From Candidatus Methanoperedens sp. (GTDB lineage Archaea; Halobacteriota; Methanosarcinia; Methanosarcinales; Methanoperedenaceae): a DNA stretch of 32,000 nucleotides. The notes below the pieces were generated by a model that was given only the letters and a program-made list of their open reading frames with translations, had not been told where the DNA came from and did no database searches. Position 1 is the stretch's first letter. Every line of letters starts with the position of its first letter. Both the position numbers and the translations under genes were made by a program. The stretch is from positions 1 to 32,000 of the forward strand of contig JBGQBI010000005.1 in assembly GCA_041494705.1 (NCBI GenBank), written 5' to 3'. This document shows, piece by piece, positions 7,118 through 24,944 of the stretch.

Positions 7118-7378
7118 CTATCGCTTAAATGCTATTTTATACACAGCAAATATAACTATCAGATAGGCAAGCGTCCTGATTATTATTAACACACTTACTA
7201 AACTTTGCGTAAAGCCGAAAAGTGTTGCAAGATGCGAGACGCCAAAGAGCCCGAAGGCTATACCGACATAAAGAGGCACGTTATCGCTGCTCTTTTTATA
7301 GCCCCAATAGCCCAGGACCAGTATTATGACGCTGAGCACCAGATTTACCGCGGTTATCGGATCCCATATAAATGCCAT
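7118..7378 (-). CDS. Small 3-TM membrane protein (paralog B)
   Basis: 86 aa with AAGGAGGTGATGAG upstream. It is a tandem paralog of 6822..7079. Confidence 0.7.
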   Translation of the reverse strand: MAFIWDPITAVNLVLSVIILVLGYWGYKKSSDNVPLYVGIAFGLFGVSHLATLFGFTQSLVSVLIIIRTLAYLIVIFAVYKIAFKR

Positions 7379-7393
7379 TTCTCATCACCTCCT

Positions 7394-7984
7394 TTAATTC
7401 CAATAATTCCTGACATATAATCCCGATTTTTTAATGTGGGGCGTAATGTATCGCAGCAGCAACGGGGTAATCACAATTGTTACTATTATATTGGGGATAA
7501 GCCAGCCCGCAAATATTCCAGGCGCATTATTCCATGAGATAATCCCGCCAAGGGCAAGCGTACTTGCACCCCAGCCAGCCCCGGCAATATTATTTAACAC
7601 CACGCCAAAAACCAGGAATATTAAAAAGTCCCTTTTTGTTGTAAGACCTGCATCAGCACCTGATATCCTGAAAGCTACCAGTGGTATCAAAACCTGCCAG
7701 AGATCAGCCAATGACCAATAGGCATTGACGCCGGGTTGCAGACCTGTGCTCATCCCGGCTCCTATAAAACATCCAATATATGCTGCAATTGCTCCCCACA
7801 TCCCGAACCATAGCGAAAAGGCAATCATAAATGCAACTGCAAAGTATAATCCGGAAACTCCCGGGGCAATCTGCCAGGTAATTACGGCATAACGTGACAA
7901 AAGTGAGTTTATTATAGTAATTATTATTAAAATTATCAGATAAGTATATAATGACTTTTGTTTCTGATTACCCCCAATATTCAT
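7394..7984 (-). CDS. Polytopic membrane protein, possibly an ECF-transporter S-component-like substrate-capture protein
   Basis: It has 5-6 hydrophobic segments rich in G/A/W (GMWGAIAAYIGCFIGAG, NNIAGAGWGAS). I used ATG 7984 rather than the track GTG 7993. The function call rests only on a loose resemblance to the ECF S / vitamin-uptake fold. Confidence 0.5.
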   Translation of the reverse strand: MNIGGNQKQKSLYTYLIILIIITIINSLLSRYAVITWQIAPGVSGLYFAVAFMIAFSLWFGMWGAIAAYIGCFIGAGMSTGLQPGVNAYWSLADLWQVLIPLVAFRISGADAGLTTKRDFLIFLVFGVVLNNIAGAGWGASTLALGGIISWNNAPGIFAGWLIPNIIVTIVITPLLLRYITPHIKKSGLYVRNYWN

Positions 7985-8207
7985 TCTTACCACTCCACAT
8001 TATATGGGATTCCACATAAAACTCATCCCTTGACATCCCAATTTTAATATTATTGTTTATGGTTAATAAGACTTTGTTTTATGTTTTACTAATATACCCG
8101 ATTGTGCGGGAAAGCGAAGTTGAATTACCTTAATCAGGCCTTTAATGCCTTCTGCTTTACCAGATAAAATCGAAAGAGTTAATTATTCAAAAATTACCTT
8201 GCGCGCC

Positions 8208-8795
8208 ATGAGGAATTTCAAGGTGGATGAGTATGCGGTTTCGCCTGTTGTCGGCGTGATACTGATGGTGGGAATGACTGTGATTATGGTTTCAGCCGTG
8301 GCTGTGTCTGTATTTGCATTCTCGATTCCTGAGAGCGCGCCGCATGCTAAGATTGTGGTGGTGGAGGCGAGGGGAGATATGGATGATGATCTGCATGAGA
8401 ATAAAATAGTGCTAAAACATAAAGGTGGGGATGCCTTAAATGAGAACAATACTAAAATTATCATCACAGGAAAAGGATGTGCATATACAGGGAATATGTC
8501 GTCATGTCTCCTAAAAGATATGCGAGCCACTTATGGAGATTTAACCGGAGAGAATTATTATCATAACGGAACTGATTTCACTTTAAAACAAATAGTAAGT
8601 GGCACTTCATGGGATGCTGGGGAACAAATAGAACTTTATGGACGAGATGGAGTAGATTTAGATTATAGCGATACGCGCAATACTGTCGATAGTAAATGGA
8701 AAATAGATGCAGGCTCTACAGTTTCAGTGACAATAATAGACACCATTACAAATCAAGTAATAGCAACCTCAAGGCTTACTGTAAAACACCCATAA
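8208..8795 (+). CDS. Archaeal type IV pilin-like protein (DUF1628 class-III signal peptide N-terminus)
   Basis: MRNFKVDEYAVSPVVGVILMVGMTVIMVSAVAVSVFAF matches the archaeal prepilin N-terminal pattern (charged leader, AVSPV.GVILMV hydrophobic helix). I prefer ATG 8208 to the track start at 8145. Confidence 0.7.
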   Translation: MRNFKVDEYAVSPVVGVILMVGMTVIMVSAVAVSVFAFSIPESAPHAKIVVVEARGDMDDDLHENKIVLKHKGGDALNENNTKIIITGKGCAYTGNMSSCLLKDMRATYGDLTGENYYHNGTDFTLKQIVSGTSWDAGEQIELYGRDGVDLDYSDTRNTVDSKWKIDAGSTVSVTIIDTITNQVIATSRLTVKHP

Positions 8796-12646: not shown

Positions 12647-14833
12647 TTACTGGTATATGAAGTTCTCAGATATCTTGGTGTATTTCTCCAGTTCCTTCTT
12701 TGAATACGGTTTTACTTTTACCATGGCGTCCCTGAAATTATGGTAGCCCACTTTCAGTCCCCTGACAGAGTTTTCATCCTCTGTAGGCTTACCCGATGCC
12801 ACATACTCCCTGATGGCAAGTATCGCGGCTTCATTGCACACAGATGCAATGTCCGCCCCTGTGAAACCTTCCGTGTCATCAGCAAGCGTATCAAGGTCAA
12901 CATCGCTGTCAAGCGGGGTTTTGCCGGTGTGGACTTTGAATATCTCAAGCCTTGCGTCCCTGTCAGGCGGCGTGACATAGATAAGCCGGTCAATCCTTCC
13001 GGGTCGGAGAAGCGCAGGGTCTATGATATCTGGCCTGTTCGTTGCTGCAATCACAGTAATGTTGTGCAGCTCTTCAAGCCCGTCGATTTCCGAAAGCAAC
13101 TGGCTGATAACCCTCTCTGTGACATGGGAATCCGAACCCGTCCCGCGTACAGGTGTTATTGAATCAATCTCATCAAAGAAGATGATGCATGGAGATGCCT
13201 GTTTTGCCTTCCTGAAGGTCTCGCGGACCGCTTTTTCGCTTTCGCCAACCCATTTGCTCAGGAATTCCGGGCCTTTTACACTTATGAAATTCGCCTCGCT
13301 CTCGGTAGCGACAGCTTTTGCAAGCATGGTCTTGCCTGTTCCGGGCGGGCCATAAAGCAGGATTCCCTTCGGCGGTTTTGCGCCTGCCTCTTTGAACAAC
13401 ATGGGATATTTCATAGGCCATTCAACCGCTTCTTTTAATTCCTGTTTTGCATCAAGAAGCCCGCCAATGTCGCTCCAGTGGACATTTGGCGTTTCGATGA
13501 ACACCTCGCGAAGCGCCGATGGCGTAATTTCACGCAGGGCATTACCGAAATCCTCCGCAGTCACTGTCATCTTGTTCAGGATATCTGCCGGGATGCTCTG
13601 AACCTCAAGGTCAAGTTCAGGCAGCACACGCCTTATGGAACTCATGGCTGCCTCCCTGGCGAGGGCTGCAATGTCTGCGCCCACGAAGCCGTGAGTGATG
13701 TCGGCAAATTTTTCAAGTTTCACATCATCAGCCAGAGGCATTCCCCTGGTATGGATTTGCAAAATCTCAAAACGCGCTTTCCTGTCCGGGACGCCAATCT
13801 CGATTTCACGGTCAAACCTTCCCGGGCGGCGAAGCGCCGGGTCAATTGCATTTGGCCTGTTCGTGGCGCCTATGACCACGACTTTGCCGCGGGCTTTAAG
13901 ACCGTCCATCACAGCCAGAAGCTGGGCAACCACGCGCCGCTCCACTTCGCCTGTGACTTCCTCTCTTTTCGGGGCGATGCTGTCTATCTCGTCTATCAGT
14001 ATGATGCTGGGCGCATTATCCTCAGCCTGCTGGAATATCTCCCTGAGTTTTTCTTCAGATTCGCCATAGAATTTGCTCATGATTTCAGGCCCGCTGAGGG
14101 TCAGGAAATTCGCGTTAGTTTCTGATGCAAGGGCTTTTGCAAGCATGGTCTTCCCTGTTCCCGGCGGCCCGTGAAGCAGTACACCCTTCGGGGCTTCAAC
14201 CCCGAGGCGTTCAAATAGCTCAGGATGCCGGAGAGGAAGTTCAATCATCTCCCGTACTTTCCTTACTTCATCTCCCAGCCCACCGATATCTTCATACGAG
14301 ACCCTCGGAATTGTGGGCATTTCTTTTGCTGGCTTATCGCTTATCTCTATAGCCGTACCCGAGCCGATTATGACAGAGTCAGCCACGGGTTTTATGGAGA
14401 TGACCACAAGGTCAACGCGGCGTCCCATGATATTCAATTCCACTACATCCCCGCGGGTGATTACCCTTCCTTCAAGGTTATGGGCAAGATATGCCTCACC
14501 GCCCTGGATTTTCAAGGGCTGCGTGGGTGAAAAAAGGATTTTTTCAGCAGGCGCCGTATGTATCTTTCGCACATGCACCTTGTCATCGATGCTAACGCCG
14601 GCATTTCGTCTTACAGTCCCGTCAATGCGTATGAGACCGCTGGTGCTGTCCTCAGGATAACCCGGCCATATTATTGCCGCTGTCCTTTTTGTGCCTTCAA
14701 TACCTATTACATCGCCGGTTTGAAGCCCGAGTTCATAGGCGGCCTCAGGGTCCAATCGCGCAATACCGCGTCCTGCGTCGTATGATTTTGCCTCGATGAC
14801 CTTTAAAGTCACAGCTTTATCTTTTTTATCCAT
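12647..14833 (-). CDS. cdc48: CDC48/VCP/p97-type AAA+ ATPase (N domain plus two AAA modules)
   Basis: 728 aa. It has two Walker A motifs (GPPGTGKT twice) and two Walker B motifs ([16 protein letters not shown]). SRH regions end in PALLRPGR. The N-terminal VAT/CDC48 double-psi barrel start is LKVIEA...GRGIARLD. Confidence 0.95.
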
Positions 14834-14859
14834 AATTATCTATTAAACTCCTGTTATAA

Positions 14860-15384
14860 TTATTCGATTTTGACAGTTTTCCCTTCAGGTTTCCTTCGGC
14901 CTTTGAGTTTGAGAGTAATTTCAAGGACTCCGTTGTTATATTTTGCACCCGCGCTGTCGGGAACGACAGGTGAGGGATTGGTTATTGCCTTAAAGTATTT
15001 CCTGCCATTACTATCCGCTTTAATGACCAGCTGGTTCTCTGTTGCATTGAGTTCGATATCTTCTTTCCGAACTCCAGGCATTTCCACGGTTATGCACAGT
15101 TCTTTATTCTTCTCGTCAATTATGGAACTGGCAAATGGCTCTCTGACATCCTGATCTTTTGGACCGGGAAATCCGCCTATTTGCGGAAGACCATCCTGCC
15201 TTACATTCCCGAAGTGTTCCACGTGCGGGATGCCGTCAGGCCCGACATGCATGCTATATCCGTAAACCAGAGGTTCTTTTCCGGTTTCATGCATCATTTT
15301 CTCCATAAGCTCGTTCATTTCTTCCATTTGCTTCTCGAATTCTTCAAAAATTCCCTTGTCAGTTCTTTTCCATCCTTCGAACAT
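14860..15384 (-). CDS. hsp20: Hsp20 / alpha-crystallin family small heat-shock protein
   Basis: The C-terminal alpha-crystallin domain reads ITVEMPGVRKEDIELNATENQLVIKA ... AKYNNGVLEITLKL. The gene sits between the regulator and cdc48 on the same strand. Confidence 0.9.
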   Translation of the reverse strand: MFEGWKRTDKGIFEEFEKQMEEMNELMEKMMHETGKEPLVYGYSMHVGPDGIPHVEHFGNVRQDGLPQIGGFPGPKDQDVREPFASSIIDEKNKELCITVEMPGVRKEDIELNATENQLVIKADSNGRKYFKAITNPSPVVPDSAGAKYNNGVLEITLKLKGRRKPEGKTVKIE

Positions 15385-15426
15385 ATTTGTACCTCTATTT
15401 TTATTTCTATTTTATTTTTATATACT

Positions 15427-16059
15427 TTAGCCTATACTGTAATTATTTTCATCTTTTTTTATTATATCTTTTCGTTCCATTCTATCCAGGTATTCCTCAA
15501 GCACATATTCAGGAATGCCAAGCTGCATGGATAACACACGCTGGGTCATGGGGCCTTTAAGGAGCGCATAGAGTATTTCAGCCTCAATGTGATCTTCTGC
15601 GACGTCCTCGATGGCGTTCATGCACCGTCCCATAGCCTCGGTGATTCCTGACTGGACTTGCTGGTACTCTTCCATCAGGGAGCGGCGGTGTTCCAGAAGC
15701 CCTTCCACCTCGCTATAAACGGATTTTAACCCTGAGACGGCTTCCTTTGATTCCAGATGGCTACTCGGCGCGTCAATGATGGCGACTGTAGTGGTCTCCA
15801 CTTCAAAGGAGTAAGGCGACACAAATACTTCAAGACGGAGGTTGTCTGTTATATGGAAGTATTTGCGCCGCTGGTCGTCTACGTTGCCTTCAATCAGACC
15901 CGCTTTCTCAAGGAGCAGAAGGTGTCCGAGAACTGCTTTGGCGCCTACGTCCAGCCTTTCTGCAATTTCGCTCATGTAGCAGGGGCGGCTTGCCAGAAGA
16001 TGCAGTATTTTCCTTCGGTTTTCGTTCCCGAGTATGTCCAACAGTTGTGCCGATTCCAT
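15427..16059 (-). CDS. ArsR/TrmB-type winged-helix transcription regulator, HSR1/Phr-like heat-shock regulator candidate
   Basis: The N-terminal wHTH is LDILGNENRRKILHLLASRPCYMSEIAERLDVGAKAVLGHLLLLEKAGLIE. A coiled middle region follows, then a second HTH-like C-terminus. It is the first gene of the regulator-hsp20-cdc48 set. A CTAAC-N5-GTTAG palindrome lies in its promoter. Confidence 0.7.
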   Translation of the reverse strand: MESAQLLDILGNENRRKILHLLASRPCYMSEIAERLDVGAKAVLGHLLLLEKAGLIEGNVDDQRRKYFHITDNLRLEVFVSPYSFEVETTTVAIIDAPSSHLESKEAVSGLKSVYSEVEGLLEHRRSLMEEYQQVQSGITEAMGRCMNAIEDVAEDHIEAEILYALLKGPMTQRVLSMQLGIPEYVLEEYLDRMERKDIIKKDENNYSIG

Positions 16060-16077
16060 ATTTATGTTTCACCCCGA

Positions 16078-16127
16078 GTTAGTGACTTGAGGTTACTAAC
16101 CTTAAGTTAGTGATGATGGTATATATA
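16078..16127 (-). promoter_or_regulatory. Heat-shock operon promoter: TATA-like box plus HSR1-type operator
   Basis: TATATATA lies at 16120-16127, 61-68 nt upstream of ATG 16059. The palindrome TTACTAAC-cttaa-GTTAGTGA spans 16093-16113 and contains CTAAC-N5-GTTAG at 16096-16110. A third half-site GTTAGTGA is at 16078-16085. With usual archaeal TATA-TSS spacing, the palindrome falls where the TSS is expected. Confidence 0.5.
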
Positions 16128-16133
16128 GGTTAC

Positions 16134-16207
16134 TCCATGATTAGCTTTGCACCTAAAGTACCATTTTTAAGCGACTTTAGGTGCAGACAATGGACTTTAG
16201 GTGCAGA
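16134..16207. repeat. Left repeat node: 9-bp flanking duplication, 17-bp TIR and two subterminal 15-mers
   Basis: TCCATGATT is at 16134-16142 and AGCTTTGCACCTAAAGT at 16143-16159. GACTTTAGGTGCAGA occurs at 16173-16187 and 16193-16207, a 20-bp period. TGCACCTAAAGT (16148-16159) and ACTTTAGGTGCA (16174-16185) form a perfect 12-bp inverted repeat. Confidence 0.9.
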
Positions 16208-16278
16208 TGTTTTTGATAGTAGATGGATAGAAGTATCATATTATAGCCTTGTGCAATTAATATGGCGTTGGTGAAAAT

Positions 16279-16830
16279 ATGAAAGATTACACAAAAAGTT
16301 GCGATGGATGCATTCGCTCTCAAGGAAAGGACACGGTTCAGGGAGGAATCGTTGAATTAAAAGGCGATTGGATACTTAATCATATTAGTGGCGAAGGAGG
16401 ATTTCTTGGATGGGTGATATTGCAACCTCGTTATCATCGGATGGGGTTAGCAGACCTTGAATCTGACGAATTGAGCTTCTTGGGTGAAAACATTCAGAAG
16501 ATTGATATAGCCTTGGAAAGCTATTGGAATGAATATTTCGAAAATGATTCACTTGAGCGAGTATATGTGACCTACTTTTTTGAATCTGCTTATGATAAAC
16601 CAAATCCAGAAAAATTTCACTTACATATTCATCTAATTCCTCGCCCTATAAGTTTTGACAAATTACTGAGAGAATGTGTGCCTAATTCGAATAATAAATC
16701 ATATATCAATGCATGGAAAATCTACACACTTCCAAAATACAAGAATTTTCCTCCTGAGTACGTCAAAACTAAAGAGAATGTGACAAATCTCATGGAATAT
16801 CTTAGAGATATTCTGCAATGCGTTGATTAG
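16279..16830 (+). CDS. HIT (histidine triad) superfamily hydrolase-like protein
   Basis: The histidine triad is HLHIHLIPR. An N-terminal CDGC motif and GWVILQPRYH (a nucleotide-binding-loop-like stretch) are also present. The last 29 nt overlap the convergent transposase 3' end. Confidence 0.6.
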   Translation: MKDYTKSCDGCIRSQGKDTVQGGIVELKGDWILNHISGEGGFLGWVILQPRYHRMGLADLESDELSFLGENIQKIDIALESYWNEYFENDSLERVYVTYFFESAYDKPNPEKFHLHIHLIPRPISFDKLLRECVPNSNNKSYINAWKIYTLPKYKNFPPEYVKTKENVTNLMEYLRDILQCVD

Positions 16831-18037
16831 GTTTAAGAATTGAAAGGTTTTGAGTGCAGAAGTCGGGCTTTATGCCCAACTCATGCATCTCATGTATCAG
16901 GACTATGATGTTGTGCGCTATCAGCTTGCAGAGTAACTCATTTTTCTGAGCTATGAAATTCTTGGATTTCAGTTTATCCCCAAGCTTCGCTTTTATCATG
17001 TTAAAGGTACTTTCTACATTGCTTCTCTTGTGGTAGTGATTCCAAAAATCCTCTTGGTTAAGCTGGAAATACAGAAACATCTTCCACCATAGCGCACTGC
17101 CTCTACTCTTGCCTGTTGCATTGCTCTTGAATGGGATATATGCCGTTCCCCCAACCTGTGCAACCGCTTCAAGGTTATCCCTGCTTGAATATGCCTTGTC
17201 GGCGGTCATTTCCTTGATGTTAAAACCGTTCTGTGCCGTTGCCATGACAAGCGGTGCGAACTGCGGGCTGTCTGCACTATCCCCATCTGTTATTTCTGCG
17301 CTGGCTATCACATTGGTTTTTACACCTACGGAGATATGAGCCTTAAGCCATTTATGCTGCCTCTTAAGGTCATATTTCTGATTTGCATACTCATTATAGC
17401 TTGTAGTCCTGAATCCTGAGCTATCAATGGCAAATGAATCTTCAACAACTGCAAGGGGCTGGGCAGAAATACCTACCAGCTTGTGCAACATAGGAGTTAT
17501 GTCCTCTTTATTGAACATCTTACTTACGGTATTGAAATGCGGGGCATGTTTTATCTGTTCCCTCTCAACCGCATTGCCGAATAATGATGCAGCCCTTCGG
17601 CTCGAAAGCTGAGAATAGACTTTCTGGACTGAACAGAATATCGTTTCCCTCATGCTCAAGCGTGGTCTCCCGAAATCCTGCGGAGGTTCTTCTACACTTT
17701 CTACTAAATCCTTTAGCAGTTCATCAAACAACTTTATTTCGCTTGTTTGAGCCTTGTTATAGACTTCCCATGCCTGTTTATAGGTTAAGCGTACTTTTGT
17801 TTCTTCTGTGCCGATGGGTGTTTCTTTTAAAATTTGCAAGTAGTAGCGTAAAGCGTGGGCGTGCTTGCATGTGGTTTTGTGGTATTCCGCATCTGGGCAG
17901 TTGCATGTAAATTTCTCATCTACGAAATACACCTTATCGCTTGATTGCGATGGCACTAACCAGATATGTCTTTTCCCATCATATCTTATTTTCTTAGTCT
18001 GTACGATTTCTTTTCCTTTTATTTCTCTTGTATCCAT
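16802..18037 (-). CDS. DDE transposase (IS4/IS5 superfamily, DDE_Tnp_1 type) with N-terminal SWIM zinc finger
   Basis: The SWIM finger CxCxnCxH is FTCNCPDAEYHKTTCKHAH. DDE candidates are AIDSSGF, TADKAYSS and SNVESTF, with the signature Y-2-R-3-E-6-K (YHKRSNVESTFNMIKAK). I use ATG 18037, preceded by AAGGAGGA, rather than the track start at 18100. Confidence 0.85.
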   Translation of the reverse strand: MDTREIKGKEIVQTKKIRYDGKRHIWLVPSQSSDKVYFVDEKFTCNCPDAEYHKTTCKHAHALRYYLQILKETPIGTEETKVRLTYKQAWEVYNKAQTSEIKLFDELLKDLVESVEEPPQDFGRPRLSMRETIFCSVQKVYSQLSSRRAASLFGNAVEREQIKHAPHFNTVSKMFNKEDITPMLHKLVGISAQPLAVVEDSFAIDSSGFRTTSYNEYANQKYDLKRQHKWLKAHISVGVKTNVIASAEITDGDSADSPQFAPLVMATAQNGFNIKEMTADKAYSSRDNLEAVAQVGGTAYIPFKSNATGKSRGSALWWKMFLYFQLNQEDFWNHYHKRSNVESTFNMIKAKLGDKLKSKNFIAQKNELLCKLIAHNIIVLIHEMHELGIKPDFCTQNLSILKPNQRIAEYL

Positions 18038-18070
18038 GTTTGTTTCCTCCTTAGTGGATGATATTCTAAT

Positions 18071-18190
18071 CTGTCGTACGATAGATTGTTTTAAAAGCAT
18101 ATAAACTTTACTATAAATCGTACGACAGGGTATCTTTATATATTAAATCGTACAATTTAATAATGTAAATGCCCGAAAAAACCGTACGAA
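18071..18190. promoter_or_regulatory. Divergent promoter region with repeated TCGTACGA palindromes
   Basis: CTGTCGTACGAT (18071-18082) and ATCGTACGACAG (18117-18128) form a perfect 12-bp inverted repeat. TAAATCGTAC is repeated at 18114-18123 and 18144-18153. CGTACGA recurs at 18184-18190. TTTATATA (18135-18142) lies ~27 nt upstream of ATG 18169, which implies a near-leaderless mRNA. Confidence 0.4.
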
Positions 18191-18465
18191 AGAAAAAAGA
18201 GAAGCCTGTGCCTTTGGATTATTCCAAACTACCGAATGAATTAGAGGACATAGTTGCCGAGCCACTATCAGATTTAGCGGAAAAAGAAGCGAACATTAAC
18301 TATGACGGTAAACAATACTTGGTTCGGTTTCCGAACGATATAGCCAATGCTATCGGTATTAAGAAAGGAGACAAAATTAAATTCAGAGTTGTACTGCCAT
18401 CTCCCAAAACAAATCAGCAAGAGGAGATAGATATTAAATATGTAAGGAGTGAAAAGCGTGAATAG
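18169..18465 (+). CDS. AbrB/SpoVT (swapped-hairpin)-like small DNA-binding protein
   Basis: The C-terminal YLVRFPNDIANAIGIKKGDKIKFRV matches the AbrB/MazE-type motif (x-IP-x-x-I-x-x-x-x-G-I-K-x-G-D-x-hydrophobic). It is the first gene of the coupled operon. Confidence 0.5.
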   Translation: MPEKTVRKKKEKPVPLDYSKLPNELEDIVAEPLSDLAEKEANINYDGKQYLVRFPNDIANAIGIKKGDKIKFRVVLPSPKTNQQEEIDIKYVRSEKRE

Positions 18466-18661
18466 CAAATTCACATCAAACGAAAAGCGAATAGTCAATC
18501 TCCTATACGTAGCTCGGAGACCTTTGACAACAAAACAGGTTTCAGAAAAATTGGGCATAGCTTGGCAGACCGCAAAAGATAACCTCACGAGCTTACGTAA
18601 AAATGGTTATGTAAACATGGAGGAGAGAGGCAATAGGACTAATTGGTGGCTGAGGATATGA
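18458..18661 (+). CDS. Small winged-helix (MarR/ArsR-like) DNA-binding protein
   Basis: NEKRIVNLLYVARRPLTTKQVSEKLGIAWQTAKDNLTSLRKNGYV is a classic wHTH. GTG 18458 is preceded by AAGGAGTGA (the track start is GTG 18449). The gene overlaps the upstream stop. Confidence 0.6.
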   Translation: MNSKFTSNEKRIVNLLYVARRPLTTKQVSEKLGIAWQTAKDNLTSLRKNGYVNMEERGNRTNWWLRI

Positions 18662-18768
18662 AAATGGAGGACTGTATATTGGGAAAAAGGGAGACGGATA
18701 GGATAATTACTTTCACTCCGCTTTCATTAGTGATTTATAAAGATAAAAATACAGATAAGGAGGGCTAA
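18658..18768 (+). CDS. Possible 36-aa bridging micro-ORF
   Basis: Its ATG overlaps the wHTH stop (ATGA at 18658-18661). Its TAA at 18766-18768 ends 1 nt before the methylase ATG at 18770. Translation is MKMEDCILGKRETDRIITFTPLSLVIYKDKNTDKEG. The only support is this exact fit between neighbours. Confidence 0.25.
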   Translation: MKMEDCILGKRETDRIITFTPLSLVIYKDKNTDKEG

Positions 18769-18769
18769 A

Positions 18770-20575
18770 ATGAATGAGCGAATCACAGAGGATATTGTTC
18801 GTAACCATTTCAAGAGCGATGGGTGTTATGACAGAATACTTCTTGAAGAACAAAAGTCCAGCATCCCCCGTGTGGATAAGTTGTTAAAAAGTGCATCAAA
18901 GTCTGGAATGGGTGGAGGCAAACCTGAGTTTTTAATCACATTCAGAAATGAAATAATGGATTTTATAATCGTTGTAGAATGTAAGGCAAGTAGAACAAAA
19001 CACGAGAGCAAAACACGAGATAATTACGGAGAATATGCCGTGGACGGCGCAGTGTTGTATTCGTCGTTCCTTTCGCAAGAATATGATGTGCTTTCAATTG
19101 CTGTAAGCGGGGAAACAAAAAATAATTTAAAAGTATCACATTTCCTACAACTGAAAGGGGAAACTGAGGCGAAACCCATATTCGGTGACGAGTTGCTGTC
19201 CGTTAAAAACTATCTGAATGGTTACGTCACCAGCGAGCGTAAATGTATTCAACAGTATCAAGAACTTTTGAAATATTCTAAACCTTTAAACGACTATCTC
19301 CACTCCATAAAAGTAAAAGAATCGCAGCGGAGCCTTCTTATTAGCGGTATATTAATTGCGTTAGAAGATGAATCGTTTGAGATAAGTTATAAAAAAATAA
19401 AAGATACCCAGCAATTAGCGAATCGGTTGGTCACTACCATAAAAGAACAACTTGGAAATACCTTAAAGCAGGAAAAAGCTGAGAATCTGGCTGTAGCATA
19501 CAGTTTTATCAAAACACATACAGATATGTCGCAGAAAGAGGGGATATTGAGAGGTTTAATTGATAATGTAAACAATAAAATTAAGCCCTTTATTAAGACC
19601 TATCCTGGTCATGATGTTTTAGGTCAGTTTTACATTGAGTTTTTGAAATATGCTAATAACGATAAGGGTTTGGGAATCGTCCTGACGCCACCCCATATAA
19701 CAGAGCTTTTTTCAGATATAGCCATGGTAAACAAGAACAGTATCTTACTCGATAATTGTGCTGGTACTGCTGGTTTTTTGATAAGCGGAATGAAAAAAAT
19801 GATGGCGGATGCAAAAGGAGATGAGGAAAAAATAAAAGACATAAAGAAAAACCAGCTTATAGGAATCGAGTATCAGGACGATATTTTTGCATTAGCTTGT
19901 TCGAATATGTATATTCATGGGGATGGTAGGAGCAACATCGAGCATGGAAGTTGCTTCGATGAAGATATAATAAAGAGGGTCAAGACCAAGCACCCCAATA
20001 TCGGGTTTTTGAATCCGCCATATAAAACCGAAAAAACCGACCCTTATGAATTATCGTTCATATTAAACAATCTTGCCATGCTTGAAAAAGGCGGTACTTG
20101 TGTGGCTATAGTTCCGATGAGTTGTGTCATGGCACAGTCAGGGGAGGAACTCGATTTAAAGAAACAACTCTTAGAACATCATACATTAGAGGCAGTTTTC
20201 TCAATGCCTGATGAATTATTTATTAATTCAAACGTAGGTACAGTCACTTGTGTTGTGGTCGTAAAAGCGCATCAGCCTCATCCGACCAACTTTGAAACCT
20301 ATTTTGGATACTGCAAAGACGATGGTTTTATTAAACGGAAGCCAATGGGGAGAGGCGATTATCTCAATAAATGGGACGGTATTAAGAAAGAGTGGGTATA
20401 TAATTTTAGAAACCGCAAAGAGATTGCAGGGCATAGCGTCAAAAGATGCGTGACTGCCGAAGATGAGTGGTGTGCTGAGGCTTATATGGAGACCGACTAC
20501 TCAAACATAACCGAGGAGGATTTTGTTAAAACGGTCAAGGAATTTGTGATATTCCAAGAGATGAATTTGAAATGA
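18770..20575 (+). CDS. Fused PD-(D/E)XK endonuclease plus gamma-class N6-adenine DNA methyltransferase (BcgI-A-like type IIB/IIG restriction-modification subunit)
   Basis: The N-terminal nuclease motif is PE(53)F...D(64)FIIVVE(70)CK(72). The AdoMet motif is LLDNCAGTAGFL. The catalytic motif IV is NPPY (GFLNPPYKTE). GQFYIEFL...VLTPPHI resembles the HsdM/N6_Mtase block. There is no helicase or translocase domain. Confidence 0.7.
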   Translation: MNERITEDIVRNHFKSDGCYDRILLEEQKSSIPRVDKLLKSASKSGMGGGKPEFLITFRNEIMDFIIVVECKASRTKHESKTRDNYGEYAVDGAVLYSSFLSQEYDVLSIAVSGETKNNLKVSHFLQLKGETEAKPIFGDELLSVKNYLNGYVTSERKCIQQYQELLKYSKPLNDYLHSIKVKESQRSLLISGILIALEDESFEISYKKIKDTQQLANRLVTTIKEQLGNTLKQEKAENLAVAYSFIKTHTDMSQKEGILRGLIDNVNNKIKPFIKTYPGHDVLGQFYIEFLKYANNDKGLGIVLTPPHITELFSDIAMVNKNSILLDNCAGTAGFLISGMKKMMADAKGDEEKIKDIKKNQLIGIEYQDDIFALACSNMYIHGDGRSNIEHGSCFDEDIIKRVKTKHPNIGFLNPPYKTEKTDPYELSFILNNLAMLEKGGTCVAIVPMSCVMAQSGEELDLKKQLLEHHTLEAVFSMPDELFINSNVGTVTCVVVVKAHQPHPTNFETYFGYCKDDGFIKRKPMGRGDYLNKWDGIKKEWVYNFRNRKEIAGHSVKRCVTAEDEWCAEAYMETDYSNITEEDFVKTVKEFVIFQEMNLK

Positions 20576-21537
20576 CCACTCTAAAAAAAGTCTCCGAGTT
20601 ATTCACTATTAAATATGGTGTGAGTTTAGCATTAAGTGATTTGGAAGAATGCAAAAAATCAGACAAAGACTCTATAAACTTCGTTTCGAGAACTGATAAA
20701 AATAATGGTATTTCTGCTTTTGTAAAAAAAATAAAAGGCATTACTCCCAATGAAGCTAATACGATTTCTGTTGCAGTAAGTGGCTCTGTTCTTGCTTCGT
20801 TTTATCAACCAGAGCCATACTACAGTGGCTTTCATTTGTACGTATTAACTCCAATTCAGAAAATGACATCAGTTGAGATGATTTATTATTCTATATGTAT
20901 AAGAAGTAACCGATACCGTTATAATTTTGGGAGACAAGCCAATAAAACCCTGAAAGATATACTCATTCCATCAGAGATGCCAAAGGAGTTTTCAAACATT
21001 TCAATGGATAAAATTACATCAGTTACAAACAAAAAACTAATTAATAATAAAACTTTTAATTTAAATATTTCTCAATGGAAACCTTTTAGATATGATGAAT
21101 TATTTAAAATCGAAAGGGGACGTGGAGGGAGGAAAAAGGATTTGAAAAAAAATGGAAAAATCCCATTTGTAACATCAATTGATAAAAATAACGGTTGGTT
21201 GGGGATGATAGATTCACTTCCTTACCATAAAGGAAATGTAATTAGTGTAAATCGCAACGGGAGCGTTGGAGAAGCATATTATCAACACATTCCTTTTTGT
21301 TCAACTGAAGATGTTCATATTTTTAACCCAAAATTTGAATTAAATCAATACATTGCAATGTTTCTAATATCACTGATAAAAAAAGAAAAATATCGTTATA
21401 ATTATGGGAGAAAATGGGGAATGGAAAGAATGAATAAAACAATTATAAGATTGCCAGCGGACAAGAATGGAAAACCTGATTGGCAATTCATGGAAAATTA
21501 CATTAAATCATTACCTTATAGTTCTTCCATGACATAA
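20572..21537 (+). CDS. Specificity (HsdS/BcgI-B-like) subunit with two internally duplicated target-recognition halves
   Basis: The ATG overlaps the methylase stop (ATGA). The two halves share blocks: LFTIKYG/LFKIERG, FVSRTDKNNGISAFV/FVTSIDKNNGWLGMI, ISVAVSGSV/ISVNRNGSV and YRYNFGRQANKTL..ILIP/YRYNYGRKWGMERMNKTIIRLP. Confidence 0.65.
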   Translation: MTTLKKVSELFTIKYGVSLALSDLEECKKSDKDSINFVSRTDKNNGISAFVKKIKGITPNEANTISVAVSGSVLASFYQPEPYYSGFHLYVLTPIQKMTSVEMIYYSICIRSNRYRYNFGRQANKTLKDILIPSEMPKEFSNISMDKITSVTNKKLINNKTFNLNISQWKPFRYDELFKIERGRGGRKKDLKKNGKIPFVTSIDKNNGWLGMIDSLPYHKGNVISVNRNGSVGEAYYQHIPFCSTEDVHIFNPKFELNQYIAMFLISLIKKEKYRYNYGRKWGMERMNKTIIRLPADKNGKPDWQFMENYIKSLPYSSSMT

Positions 21538-21550
21538 TTTCCTCAAACTG

Positions 21551-21631
21551 ACTTTAGGTGCAACTTCACTACTTTAGGTGCAAGTGTGACTTTGGGTGCA
21601 AAGCTTCCATGATTAGCTTTGCACCTAAAGT
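21551..21631. repeat. Right repeat node: three phased 13-mers, right TIR, 9-bp duplication and the next left TIR
   Basis: ACTTTAGGTGCAA starts at 21551 and 21571, and ACTTTGGGTGCAA at 21589, giving spacings of 20 and 18 bp. The right TIR is 21589-21605, TCCATGATT is 21606-21614, and AGCTTTGCACCTAAAGT is 21615-21631. Positions 21589-21631 can fold as a 17-bp stem (one G-T pair) with a 9-nt loop. Confidence 0.9.
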
Positions 21632-21730
21632 CGGAAAAGGTGGCATATTCAAACCGAGATAACTTTGGCGCTTGACCGATATACGCTTGCCTGAGCAGGT
21701 TAGGTTTTATTATAAAATTAATGAACTATT

Positions 21731-22198
21731 CTATTCCCCCGAATTAATAAAATCGTAACCGATTAACGAAATGACAAGCACAAAAGTTACGGGTACAAAA
21801 TACATTCCAACAGTAAAACCCGACAAAAATTCTACAATTATCTGAGTAATTAAGAGAGTAATTGCTATAACCCCTGAATGTTTCTTAAATGATAATAATC
21901 CCCCAATGACCAGCCAAAAAATTGAACCATTAGCAAGTAATAGTAGGACTATTTGTTCAAGATGCAGCGGTTCTTCTACTATTATTGCCCCTTGTTCCAT
22001 AAGAGCACGCAGTTCTACATAGTGCTCAATTTGCCCAATAACAAATAATACTCCCAGAATGAGGCTGTATAATCCTATCAACCTAAACAGAAAAACTTTT
22101 GTGTTCATATTCCACCAGATATAATCGTCATTTTCATCTTTGTCGCCATTTCGATACATTAACTGTCCCGATTGGCTGACAAGGAACATATTGTCCAT
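21731..22198 (-). CDS. Hypothetical 4-TM membrane protein
   Basis: The 155-aa ORF has four long hydrophobic segments. The start is uncertain (alternatives at 22159 and 22108), because the track start overlaps the upstream ORF by 65 nt. Confidence 0.5.
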   Translation of the reverse strand: MDNMFLVSQSGQLMYRNGDKDENDDYIWWNMNTKVFLFRLIGLYSLILGVLFVIGQIEHYVELRALMEQGAIIVEEPLHLEQIVLLLLANGSIFWLVIGGLLSFKKHSGVIAITLLITQIIVEFLSGFTVGMYFVPVTFVLVISLIGYDFINSGE

Positions 22199-22577
22199 TT
22201 ACCCCACAAGAATTATCTGTATTGTATGTTACATATCCTATGACTTCGATATGCTGACCTTGATTTGGTGCTCTGGTCAAGCATTCCTCCTGAAGCGCAA
22301 GCGAGCCTTCACAAATCTGTTGACTGCCATCTGGTAATCTTGTACTTATTAGGAGGTGGTAAGTGTTTCCATCTTCTGCATCTAACCAATACTGCGGATT
22401 ACACGTTGTATTAAGAGGGCATGGAATAGTGATGTCTTCAATTGTACCGTTCATATCAAAGTTTGGCTTTTCAGTTAGGCTGCTTTGTTGAGAGTACCAA
22501 TAAAGGGAGAGAATTATCACAATTCCTACAAATACAACTTTTATGCCTTTTTTCATAACTATTCCTGTTCCTCCCAT
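22134..22577 (-). CDS. Hypothetical signal-anchored, cysteine-rich extracytoplasmic protein
   Basis: An N-terminal hydrophobic anchor (KKGIKVVFVGIVIILSLYWY) is followed by a ~110-aa domain with 7 Cys (CPLNTTC, QQICEG, EECL, NSCG, VPC). An alternative start is ATG 22556. Confidence 0.5.
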   Translation of the reverse strand: MGGTGIVMKKGIKVVFVGIVIILSLYWYSQQSSLTEKPNFDMNGTIEDITIPCPLNTTCNPQYWLDAEDGNTYHLLISTRLPDGSQQICEGSLALQEECLTRAPNQGQHIEVIGYVTYNTDNSCGVNGQYVPCQPIGTVNVSKWRQR

Positions 22578-22638
22578 TTTATTTTGATTTTGGGTGGTTC
22601 TTTATTGTTTGATTCACTCATTTCATGCTCCATTAATG

Positions 22639-22699
22639 CGGCTTTGCACCTAAAGTATATCGTCTGCATCGCTCAAAAACGGTACTTTGGGTGCAAAGC
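22639..22699. repeat. 61-bp 'empty' TIR pair (mini-element or hairpin)
   Basis: GGCTTTGCACCTAAAGT (22639-22655) and ACTTTGGGTGCAAAGCT (22683-22699) are separated by a 27-bp spacer. The arms match the left and right TIRs of the 16.1-21.6 kb element. Confidence 0.85.
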
Positions 22700-22732
22700 T
22701 CCCAGAATTTTCTTTGAATGGCAATTCACAGT

Positions 22733-23485: not shown

Positions 23486-23600
23486 AAAACCCCTAGTTTA
23501 TAAAATGACTTTTTCAGGTATATATTTTCTGTATAACGCCTATTGGATTTTCTACAGCCATGCTGGTAAACCGCAGACTTTTCAGAACCTTCAAGCGAGA

Positions 23601-23625
23601 CGTTTCAATTCGTGTTGGTAGTTAT
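23601..23625. repeat. Left arm of the 25-bp inverted repeat bounding the AT-rich nuclease cassette
   Basis: The arm is CGTTTCAATTCGTGTTGGTAGTTAT. Positions 23607-23625 are a perfect reverse complement of 24843-24861 (19 bp). Over 25 bp, 23 positions match. Confidence 0.9.
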
Positions 23626-23712
23626 ATAACATTTATTTTTGATTCATTTCAATTTATCAATACAAATTGAAACTGATTTTATCATCAGTTAAATCACCAC
23701 CTTTACTTTTAT

Positions 23713-24780
23713 TTAATCTTCTGCTAAAAGCTTAGAAATTTGTCTATTGGATGACAACGGATATAACTCGAGTTCGATGCAGAATTCTTCAATAAGATTT
23801 GCTATTTCTTCATGATTATTTTCGTACATTATCATGTTCTCTTCTATATATGTTATTGGCTCCCCATGAATGTATTTTACATCAAGATTTTTCTGTTTAC
23901 ATAATTTTATAAACTTAGCCTCTAATGGTTTCCATTCATCATTACTTACATCATTTGTTAATACTACACAAAGAGGTTTATTGTATTTTTTCCAGAAATC
24001 AAACCAAATACCAAAAAATAATATCCATCGCTCATTTGAGTTCCTTATGTAGAATCCATATTCGTGATGCGAATCCTTATAATAACGTCCAGTTGTATCT
24101 TCTTGTTTTATGTTGTAACCTCTCTCGTATAATTCTTCTTTGACATGATACATAATGTCCATCGGTTTGATAATTATTTCTGCAATTTCTTTGTTAAACA
24201 AATTTTTTATATCATTATAATTGATATTAGTTGTTTCTATAATGCCAAAAAAATTATTAAGGAATTTATAATACTCATTAAACAATGTGCTTGTGTCAAC
24301 TAATTCTTCTTTGTTAAAGGATTCAATCAATTGATTCCAATAAATGGTCGGCGTAAATATATCAATTCCCGAACGTTTTTTAAAACTTGATACTTGACTG
24401 TTGTAATCATTTTCATAGATATAATCCTTAGGTGCCATCAAGACCAAACCCCTAAATGGTTTCTTACTTTCTTTGGCAAGATATTCAAGATATCCAAGTG
24501 GTTGATTGTTAGTTAAGGTGGTATTTTTTATTTTGATTTCAAAGATTATTTCGACTTCATCATTTTTTATAACTAAATCGAAATTCCCATATTCGCCATT
24601 ATTATCATTAATTTTAAGATGTTCATATTTAACTCTTGACTTATGGAATCCACTGGTTTTTAGCAAGTTCAATAACAATTTTCTTAAAATTTTAAATCTT
24701 AAAAAATTATGAAGTAATTTCGTGAATGCTTTTTCATCATCTCCAACCATATCCGAGAAGACGTTATCTGAATTTACCAT
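23713..24780 (-). CDS. PD-(D/E)XK nuclease superfamily protein with an unrecognised C-terminal half
   Basis: The N-terminal half has the layout common in PD-(D/E)XK families. It reads NVFSDMVGDDEKAFTKLLHNFL, then GNFDLVIKNDEVEIIFEIKIK (D...E-x-K), then NQPLGYLEYL. The gene is very AT-rich, clearly the lowest GC in the window by eye. Confidence 0.55.
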   Translation of the reverse strand: MVNSDNVFSDMVGDDEKAFTKLLHNFLRFKILRKLLLNLLKTSGFHKSRVKYEHLKINDNNGEYGNFDLVIKNDEVEIIFEIKIKNTTLTNNQPLGYLEYLAKESKKPFRGLVLMAPKDYIYENDYNSQVSSFKKRSGIDIFTPTIYWNQLIESFNKEELVDTSTLFNEYYKFLNNFFGIIETTNINYNDIKNLFNKEIAEIIIKPMDIMYHVKEELYERGYNIKQEDTTGRYYKDSHHEYGFYIRNSNERWILFFGIWFDFWKKYNKPLCVVLTNDVSNDEWKPLEAKFIKLCKQKNLDVKYIHGEPITYIEENMIMYENNHEEIANLIEEFCIELELYPLSSNRQISKLLAED

Positions 24781-24842
24781 ATAGACGATTGAGTCTGCAT
24801 TGAATATAAATATATTTTACTATTTAGGTGTTGCACATTAAC

Positions 24843-24867
24843 ATAACTACCAACACGAATTATAACG
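24843..24867. repeat. Right arm of the 25-bp inverted repeat bounding the AT-rich nuclease cassette
   Basis: The arm is ATAACTACCAACACGAATTATAACG. See 23601-23625. Confidence 0.9.
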
Positions 24868-24944
24868 GTCTCCTTCAAGCATAATCTTTATATTTGATAA
24901 CGGTTATGTATAATTTTGTCAAAACTTAGAATATGGAGGTTTAC

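Follow-up and report, generated by a model that had tools for sequence, protein, structure and literature searches.

A candidate transposase-less cargo transposon carrying a nuclease-like gene in the chromosome of Candidatus Methanoperedens

The window analysed here, a stretch of 32,000 nucleotides from Candidatus Methanoperedens sp. (assembly GCA_041494705.1, contig JBGQBI010000005.1, positions 1 to 32,000), is part of a 2.065-Mb Joint Genome Institute (JGI) contig and contains, between a SIMPL gene and a gene for a 146-amino-acid (aa) protein (p146), a very AT-rich cassette bounded by an inverted repeat. Methanoperedens are anaerobic methane-oxidising archaea known for large extrachromosomal elements, and to our knowledge their small mobile elements have barely been described. 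An initial annotation, made from the letters alone, had read the cassette as a non-autonomous transposon with a single-gene defence or nuclease module, as an invertible or excisable cassette, or as a remnant of a homing-type insertion. Here, we describe the ends of the cassette, their occurrence in other contigs and the protein that the cassette encodes, and weigh these readings.

Boundaries and ends of the cassette

The cassette contains a single gene (23713-24780, minus strand), which encodes a protein of 355 aa and has a GC content of 28%, as the initial annotation had noted for a single very AT-rich gene at this position. GC content was 49% in the SIMPL gene, 45% in the p146 gene and 46% in the window outside its low-GC islands. 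The identity of the SIMPL neighbour was confirmed (Pfam, E = 8e-50), while the V4R-like assignment proposed for the other neighbour could not be reproduced: a Pfam scan of p146 returned nothing, and the precomputed annotation is PF27323 (RdxA_C).

The two arms of the inverted repeat (23601-23625 and 24843-24867) are 25 nt long and 92% complementary, and within them the 19-nt core AATTCGTGTTGGTAGTTAT (23607-23625) and the stretch 24843-24861 are perfect reverse complements of each other, just as first described. The repeat had also been judged unlikely to arise by chance, and indeed none of 100 dinucleotide-preserving shuffles gave any match; no further copy of the 19-mer was found in the window at up to three mismatches. 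When one indel was allowed, the inverted repeat reached outward to GAGAC(C)GTT, giving terminal repeats of ~30 nt. The initial annotation had reported no flanking direct duplication, and on this point it was mistaken, as an 8-bp direct duplication, CTTCAAGC, lies directly outside the arms at 23589-23596 and 24873-24880. This sequence (CCTTCAAGC as a 9-mer, with the preceding C counted) has only these two copies in the window; a 9-mer common to both 30-nt flanks was produced by 13 of 20000 shuffles, and 60 of 20000 random window pairs shared one. Because the arms extend to GAGAC and abut the CTTCAAGC duplication, we set the limits of the element at 23597-24872, a span of 1276 bp with 28% GC against ~46% in the host. 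The features of the element are as follows.

23589 to 23596, no strand: left copy of the target-site duplication, CTTCAAGC, abutting the left terminal repeat; kept on both sides in the related loci L024 and L025
23597 to 23632, plus strand: left terminal inverted repeat, GAGA-CGTTTCAATTCGTGTTGGTAGTTAT... (nhmmer match to arm-profile positions 5-40, E = 2.8e-9)
23650 to 23672, minus strand: degenerate copy of the arm in sub-terminal position, TTTCAATTTGTATTGATAAATTG, running opposite to the left arm; the same variant is also present in L024 and L025
23713 to 24780, minus strand: cargo gene, the only open reading frame (ORF) between the arms, for a 355-aa two-domain protein, 28% GC
24781 to 24824, minus strand: AT-rich leader, read from the sequence, in which a TATA-like TTTATATT precedes the ATG by ~25-30 nt
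24825 to 24872, minus strand: right terminal inverted repeat, a full arm consisting of GAGACCGTTATAATTCGTGTTGGTAGTTAT and the inner palindrome GTTAATGTGCAACAC (nhmmer match to arm-profile positions 3-51, E = 6.5e-14)
24873 to 24880, no strand: right copy of the target-site duplication, CTTCAAGC, followed by the conserved p146 promoter region

The two ends are asymmetric. The right end is a full arm of ~50 nt, to which the left ends of L024 and L025, as well as ends in L005 and L008, can be aligned, while the left end consists of the outer ~36 nt of the arm followed by the degenerate, inverted sub-terminal copy. A hairpin at 23647-23672, noticed earlier as following the gene, proved to be real, with an 11-pair stem (z = -3.15), and it lies in the region of this sub-terminal copy; the longer hairpin formed by the left arm together with the sub-terminal copy scored z = -3.43. 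On the other side of the gene, the leader at 24781-24824 is the presumed archaeal promoter of the cargo gene and would thus be internal to the element. The p146 promoter region to the right of the element is common to at least 30 Methanoperedens loci.

The arms and the SIMPL/p146 site in other contigs

We then scanned JGI metagenome contigs for the exact 19-mer, a search that the initial annotation had proposed, and found it in 16 contigs with one exact copy each. In 15 of them it belongs to a shared arm of ~50 nt, (G/T)AGACCGTTTCAATTCGTGTTGGTAGTTAT followed by sCyAATGTGCAACACAT, with an inner palindrome centred on CAA or TTG; in the remaining contig (L014) the rest of the arm is missing, and we rejected this hit as probably a chance match. 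The genes on the outer side of the arms are ordinary housekeeping genes, and those on the inner side are varied, mostly orphan and AT-rich. One contig, L008, carries a second complete element (7353-8401) with two cargo genes for 84 aa and 198 aa, the latter with a weak Hjc/AHJR-like match, and it too is flanked by an 8-bp duplication, GAAGAATC, with one copy immediately outside each end. Other arm-associated cargo includes a protein weakly matching GIY-YIG in L011 and, in L016, a protein with ExK..QxxxY; TPR, membrane and metallophosphatase genes occur elsewhere. A promoter-like stretch follows the full arm in L005, L015, L018 and partly in L008; we did not retain a conserved inward promoter as a family feature, as it is present only in this subset of the elements. 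L005 also carries two direct arm copies 75 nt apart. The arm is a low-copy sequence: about 560 kb of Methanoperedens DNA contained ~1 further arm.

A viral or plasmid origin of the arms was rejected, since neither the 19-mer nor a degenerate 24-mer matched IMG/VR and PLSDB gave a chance match only. The arm starts with GTTTCAAT, and its interpretation as a CRISPR repeat was likewise discarded, as arrays were absent from all loci examined; an Rfam search of the arms at E <= 1 returned no CRISPR-DR or other relevant RNA family. We found no description of the arms in the searchable open-access literature. In a separate observation, the arm in L019 (1-6950) lies at the contig edge, and its outer side encodes proteins of 1000 aa, 562 aa (with a DnaQ-like exonuclease start, MGIIYFDTETTGLD...) and 349 aa; this contig may be an extrachromosomal element or a provirus, so that arms of this family may be present on elements of that type too. 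As a probe, the ~50-nt arm profile can be used to find more cargo genes and the missing transposase.

To compare the orthologous site, as had also been suggested, p146 was searched in GTDB species representatives, which gave 38 loci, nearly all labelled Candidatus Methanoperedens; these orthologous loci place the host in this group. The SIMPL-p146 arrangement is kept in three of these loci, from close relatives (L023, L024 and L025), and all three carry the ends with other cargo. In L024 the junctions are exactly those of the window, and two full arms separated by 1.45 kb enclose genes for a TPR protein and for 189 aa. In L025 one arm is full and the other truncated, around genes for 132 aa and 193 aa, and L023 has eroded arms around genes for 190 aa and 322 aa. 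The 355-aa gene is absent from all three. The interiors of all elements have 28-36% GC against 43-46% in the flanks. Thus one chromosomal site holds four cargo sets between the same ends and, as described below, in both orientations, which is beyond the textbook case of the mobile insertion cassette (MIC), and the SIMPL/p146 site is at least one hotspot of gene turnover.

Most other Methanoperedens loci in the p146 set have no arm upstream of p146. In two of them, L026 and L029, a single 8-mer (CTTCAAGC or CTCCAAGC) is followed by the same p146 promoter sequence (20/20 identical in L026), giving an empty-site-like junction with the sequence ...CAGAACCTTCAAGCATAATC... When anchored at this junction, the left flank matched at 16 of 22 positions in L029, where the maximum of 20000 random 22-mers was 15, and at 13 of 22 positions in L026, against a null of 6.8 +/- 1.8. 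This is good, although not conclusive, evidence that L026 and L029 represent empty sites.

Two further observations concern the surroundings of p146. A degenerate arm, GTTTCAATTTGTGTTGTTGAATAA, was seen in L041 (164-187) at nearly the same position, upstream of a diverged p146 copy (86% identity); L041 and L024 belong to the same metagenome-assembled genome, and this arm points either to an earlier insertion or to a site that was used more than once. In addition, the gap between p146 and QueC, ~85 nt in the window, holds ~2.7-3 kb of extra DNA in L025 (10430-13200) and L028 (10430-13390), and in L025 additional DNA (14400-17390) separates the genes for dCMP deaminase and CarS, which suggests that these two gaps are further insertion hotspots nearby.

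Comparison of the ends indicated that the interior of the element differs in orientation between genomes. The sub-terminal copy, TTTCAATTYGTATTGATAAATTG, was located by profile and mismatch scans as an inverted, degenerate copy 25-95 nt inward of the terminal arm. In the window it lies beside the SIMPL-side arm and the full arm faces p146, an arrangement shared by L005, a short contig with the window's p146 flank, while L024 and L025 are reversed, with the sub-terminal variant beside the opposite arm (2407-2429 in L024 and 9786-9808 in L025). In keeping with this, ~90 nt of the window's left end align with the reverse complement of the right end of L024, whose left end in turn matches the right end in the window; for the inner 70 nt of the window's left end, the best inter-genome match is the right inner segment of L024 (54/61). 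The outermost ~11 nt of the arms, in contrast, track the chromosome side and not the end type, with GAGAGCGTTTC on the SIMPL side (GAGA-CGTTTC in the window) and GA(T)GACCGTTAY on the p146 side. The most economical explanation would be one shared ancestral insertion whose interior was later flipped via a crossover in the identical core; alternatively, the element could have inserted a second time, independently and the other way round. The idea of an invertible cassette has comparative support, in that the interior is flipped relative to L024 and L025. No invertase was found in the 32-kb window or beside the arms in other loci, and ongoing switching was not seen, because the contigs from two other sequencing runs are identical to the window and have the same orientation.

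The cargo protein

The N-terminal part of the cargo protein (~residues 1-160) carries the signature E16...D68...E81xK83...Q93xxxY97, and the C-terminal part (~residues 185-355, ~170 aa) is predicted to form an alpha/beta domain. The initial annotation had called the gene an orphan, which holds in that no curated family matched it, but not for the protein sequence space as a whole. A word-indexed search found only six relatives, whereas an exhaustive HMMER search of 1.84 billion representatives returned 340 cluster representatives at E <= 1e-3, 184 of them at E <= 1e-10, with typical lengths of 320-335 aa. Across 70 diverse members, E16, D68, E81, K83, Q93, Y97, W148 and G257 are invariant, so that the D...ExK and NQP..YL motifs first noticed by eye are real; no conserved cysteine is among the invariant columns. 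The cargo protein represents an uncharacterised two-domain PD-(D/E)XK family of ~340 clusters.

The PD-(D/E)XK superfamily is characterised by a catalytic D...(D/E)xK core on an alpha-beta-beta-beta-alpha-beta fold, to which its RecB-like branch adds the QxxxY motif. Profile searches pointed in the same direction as the motif. The best match of the family profile in the PDB was Cas4 (4r5q), across D..ExK..QxxxY, at E = 0.07. Among the 70 members, seven weakly matched PDDEXK_4 (best E = 3e-6) and five VRR_NUC, none of them reaching the Pfam gathering score, and single members weakly matched SduA_C (E = 0.0017, 1/70), NucS_C and AHJR-like (one each). An AlphaFold2 model built with the family alignment was confident and showed two domains (pLDDT 91.4, pTM 0.75), with the signature residues carried by the predicted strands E55-60, E66-72 and E76-82, followed by helix H95-103 and strand E109-116. 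Foldseek searches of the PDB with the full model and with the C-terminal domain gave no neighbour at E < 1e-3; the weak top fold matches are enriched in PD-(D/E)XK nucleases (R2 endonuclease domain, Can2, XPF-like and Lassa L endonuclease), and the viral fold matches include Vsr-like and restriction-enzyme-like proteins. Two matches in BFVD were to unnamed proteins, at E = 8e-5 and 4e-4 with low TM-scores. The C-terminal domain, which the initial annotation could not place, still finds no significant neighbour: modelled alone (~170 residues, pLDDT 90.7), its best fold match was a type III secretion chaperone at a non-significant E = 0.065, and its sequence had no match in the PDB. We also considered the 337-aa cargo of L016 as a distant relative and did not retain it, as hhalign gave 11% probability over the nuclease core only and the relationship was not established.

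Taken together, the N-terminal part of the cargo protein is well supported by its motif as a PD-(D/E)XK nuclease of the RecB/Cas4-like motif type, in line with the initial proposal, and most likely the protein cleaves DNA. The E...D...ExK...QxxxY signature is common to the cargo family and to the RecB/Cas4/AddB nucleases. Cas4 has a four-cysteine Fe-S cluster and is associated with the adaptation genes cas1 and cas2. Unlike Cas4, the family lacks the Fe-S cysteine cluster and is not accompanied by cas genes, which were absent from the window and from the homologue neighbourhoods, or by helicase partners. It further differs from RecB/Cas4-type proteins in that the nuclease domain is N-terminal and fused to the ~170-aa alpha/beta domain, for which no structural neighbour was found.

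The closest homologue (61% identity) is encoded in L020 by an AT-rich gene in a GC-richer contig without arms, and because of this the nuclease gene and the arms are not regarded as co-inherited. Most of the family is found in neighbourhoods that look bacterial. Among more distant homologues, P0003 (Bacteroidales) adjoins DUF6161-hsdM-hsdS; P0005 is carried by an integrase/VapE element, in overlap with an N-terminal HsdR fragment; P0007 has a WYL regulator as its overlapping neighbour and a STAND NTPase close by; and P0006 lies between housekeeping genes. The contexts of the bacterial relatives suggest a defence role for the family, and the cargo plausibly came from bacteria as a nuclease module that acts on its own, either in defence or as a selfish unit. 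A search of the cargo protein against the defence models of PADLOC-DB 2.0 gave no match at E <= 1. Since family members recur in defence-island contexts, they are candidates for defence-system screens. In L064 (2658-4639), the locus of one distant homologue, a 4-nt overlap joins the family gene to the 3' end of the gene for a WYL-domain regulator, with LRR and NB-ARC/TPR (STAND-like) genes close by; part of the family may share a conserved operon of defence type.

Mobility, alternative readings and relation to known systems

The non-autonomous transposon with a single-gene nuclease module is the best supported of the three initial options, by the repeats, the duplication, the empty-site-like relatives, the lack of a transposase and the recurrence of the arms with other cargo. 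We consider that 23597-24872 is probably a non-autonomous, transposase-less cargo transposon of the MIC type in the Candidatus Methanoperedens chromosome. What speaks most for transposition is that two independent elements, in the window and in L008, each have 8-bp duplications. In this scheme, a transposase encoded elsewhere would bind the arms, and the cassette would have moved into the SIMPL/p146 intergenic region in the ancestor of the sub-clade. Recombination at the conserved ends that family members share would later have exchanged the cargo modules. The interior would have been inverted via a crossover inside the 19-nt identical core, and the cargo would be expressed from its own presumed promoter. 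Duplications of 8 bp result from staggered cuts of the kind made by DDE transposases, and because of this signature the mobilising transposase is probably of the DDE type.

Searches of Pfam, NCBIfam and PHROGs with the cargo ORF gave no match to a transposase or recombinase, as the initial annotation had stated for recombinases, and the other elements of the family are likewise without one. The rest of the window encodes housekeeping proteins and one DDE_Tnp_1 transposase (16802-18100); we rejected this gene as the mobiliser, as its surroundings have no arm similarity and no clear terminal repeats. A second candidate was the gene beside the arm in L015 (96-857), which belongs to DUF1670 (PF07900, E = 2e-81). 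DUF1670 relatives are found almost exclusively on contigs of 1.7-2.1 kb, and the genes form an overlapping pair (~275 aa and 253 aa) in unrelated contexts (L066-L073), within a unit of ~1.9 kb whose 3' end is sharply defined (...GTCAAATGTCGTCATTT). This unit was also rejected as the mobiliser: it is not flanked by arms, it has its own sharp end, and in L015 it is inserted inside an arm-bounded element. The DUF1670 pair appears to behave like an uncharacterised insertion sequence (IS)-like mobile unit of Methanosarcinales and Methanoperedens, and no literature on DUF1670 biology was found in searchable open-access sources.

Several observations weigh against the transposon reading or against parts of it. 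No arm-bounded transposase copy was found in ~660 kb of fetched loci, so that mobilisation in trans is presumed, and most arm matches are single arms on short contigs, with two-ended elements with duplications only here and in L008. The same ends and the same duplication with different cargo at one site are unexpected from simple transposition, and therefore extra recombination or strong target specificity is needed. For the empty sites, an unanchored local alignment of the left flank was not significant, and the left-flank homology of L026 and L029 is short (~20-40 nt), with a different gene further left. For the inversion, the outer-arm pattern rests on few diagnostic bases in four genomes, and no orientation variants or excision were seen in the contigs from the two other sequencing runs, which are 100% identical to the window. 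Finally, the cargo protein has no significant match in Pfam, NCBIfam, PHROGs or PADLOC, and the PDB, Pfam and fold similarities that accompany its nuclease motif are weak.

The strongest competitor, which we nevertheless regard as unlikely, is that the arms are sites of an integron- or shufflon-like cassette-exchange and inversion system whose recombinase is encoded elsewhere. The SIMPL/p146 junction would then be a fixed docking site of an undescribed archaeal system, a functional analogue of integrons and shufflons, driven by a recombinase or a transposase, in which foreign genes with their own promoters, often for nucleases, are repeatedly taken up, exchanged and inverted. Such a system would account directly for four unrelated cargo sets between the same ends and junctions at one site, for the inversion between genomes with its apparent crossover in the 19-nt core, for the hairpin-forming inverted pair at one end, which is somewhat attC-like, and for the extra direct arm copies at some ends (L005 and L024). 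It does not account for 8-bp duplications abutting the ends at two independent sites, which indicate staggered-cut transposition and not conservative site-specific recombination. Moreover, no integrase was found in the window or beside the arms in other loci, cassette arrays were not seen in the examined loci, and there was no orientation polymorphism within the samples examined.

Less likely still, the arms would be a resident host repeat, such as a repetitive extragenic palindromic (REP)-like sequence, a regulatory palindrome or a terminator, with the genes swapped by homologous recombination in the flanking genes, as in a hotspot of the minimal-mobile-element type. Consistent with this, the arms are ancestral at the site in several genomes while the cargo changes, arm matches are mostly solitary, and there are other insertion hotspots nearby (the 6.6-kb island in the window and the p146-QueC insertions in L025 and L028). 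A resident repeat is, however, hard to reconcile with target duplications that directly abut the ends at two unrelated sites and with the existence of single-8-mer empty-site junctions. The low copy number of the arm, its position at the borders between GC-normal housekeeping DNA and AT-rich cargo, and the lack of an Rfam or terminator-type match also argue against it. A homing-type remnant, in which the PD-(D/E)XK nuclease cut its target and drove its own insertion, is very improbable and was set aside: although several arm-associated cargoes are nucleases or nuclease-like (window and L016, and weakly L008 and L011), the closest homologue lacks arms, other same-ended elements carry unrelated genes (TPR, membrane and metallophosphatase), the bacterial relatives lie in restriction-modification or defence neighbourhoods and not inside host genes or introns, and the insertion is intergenic with a duplication, unlike homing.

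The transposon reading places the element beside the MICs of bacteria. MICs are defined by two inverted repeats without a transposase, a usual target duplication and at least one passenger gene, within 0.7-3 kb, and different passengers share conserved end-proximal sequence ('modular') and are moved in trans by the transposase of a cognate IS (PMC3913671, PMC6199540). Compared with MIC231 of Bacillus cereus and the mics carrying qnrS2 and qnrD, the window element shows every structural feature of the definition. Its passengers are likewise modular, with a PD-(D/E)XK nuclease in the window, a TPR protein and 189 aa in L024, 132 and 193 aa in L025, and 84 and 198 aa in L008; and a matching transposase has not been identified for the qnrS2 and qnrD mics either. 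It differs from known MICs in its archaeal host, in repeats unrelated to those of IS231, in its 8-bp duplication, in its asymmetric ends with a hairpin-forming sub-terminal copy, and in the cargo replacement and inversion at one site. On this comparison, the window element is a new, archaeal member of the MIC, or non-autonomous cargo-transposon, kind, with a PD-(D/E)XK nuclease of probable bacterial origin as its cargo; no report of archaeal MICs was found in the searchable open-access literature.

Other small elements share some of these features. Miniature inverted-repeat transposable elements (MITEs) and the composite or cargo elements derived from them, such as Tn3-derived inverted-repeat miniature elements (TIMEs) and integron mobilisation units, are non-autonomous, have terminal inverted repeats and target duplications, are mobilised in trans and commonly leave solo or degenerate ends; MITEs proper are under ~300-500 bp and non-coding. 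The window element resembles them in being non-autonomous, with terminal inverted repeats and a target duplication, but carries a complete, presumably expressed gene. Nor is it made up of two complete MITE copies: the arm and its sub-terminal copy could be read so, but the duplication flanks the whole unit. Integron cassettes are bounded by attC sites, are recombined at attI by the tyrosine recombinase IntI and lie in arrays at a fixed site, and integrons have been reported in Archaea too. The likeness lies in promoter-proximal genes of foreign composition that are swapped at a fixed site and in one end that folds into an imperfect hairpin. In contrast to integron cassettes, the element has no integrase, no attI and no array, its ends are inverted copies with a target duplication, its cargo has its own presumed promoter, and the arms occur at many unrelated sites. 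Invertase switches combine inverted repeats with a dedicated invertase and occur in both orientations within a population. For the element, both orientations were seen among related genomes, no invertase was found in the window or beside the arms in other loci, and the two other samples have the window orientation only. As a whole, the cassette family provides a concrete route for single foreign genes, often nucleases of likely bacterial origin, into Methanoperedens chromosomes and for their exchange there.

The window contains, besides this element, a separate low-GC insertion of ~6.6 kb (16060-22730) between an ArsR-like gene and the SIMPL gene. L023 and L025 lack it and have the ArsR-like gene directly beside SIMPL. 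This island includes the DDE_Tnp_1 transposase gene (16802-18100), small helix-turn-helix ORFs and two small membrane ORFs, together with a Type IIG-like N6 methyltransferase gene (18770-20575; PADLOC REase_MTase_IIG, E = 1.6e-164) and an S subunit gene (20572-21537). A second, unrelated palindromic repeat family (AGCTTTGCACCTAAAGT...ACTTTAGGTGCAAAGC), which was not found in the other fetched loci, marks the island edges and one internal point (16134-16205, 21590-21631 and 22641-22700); it includes a 26-nt perfect direct repeat (16134-16159 and 21606-21631) and a 79% inverted pair (16143-16205 and 22645-22700).

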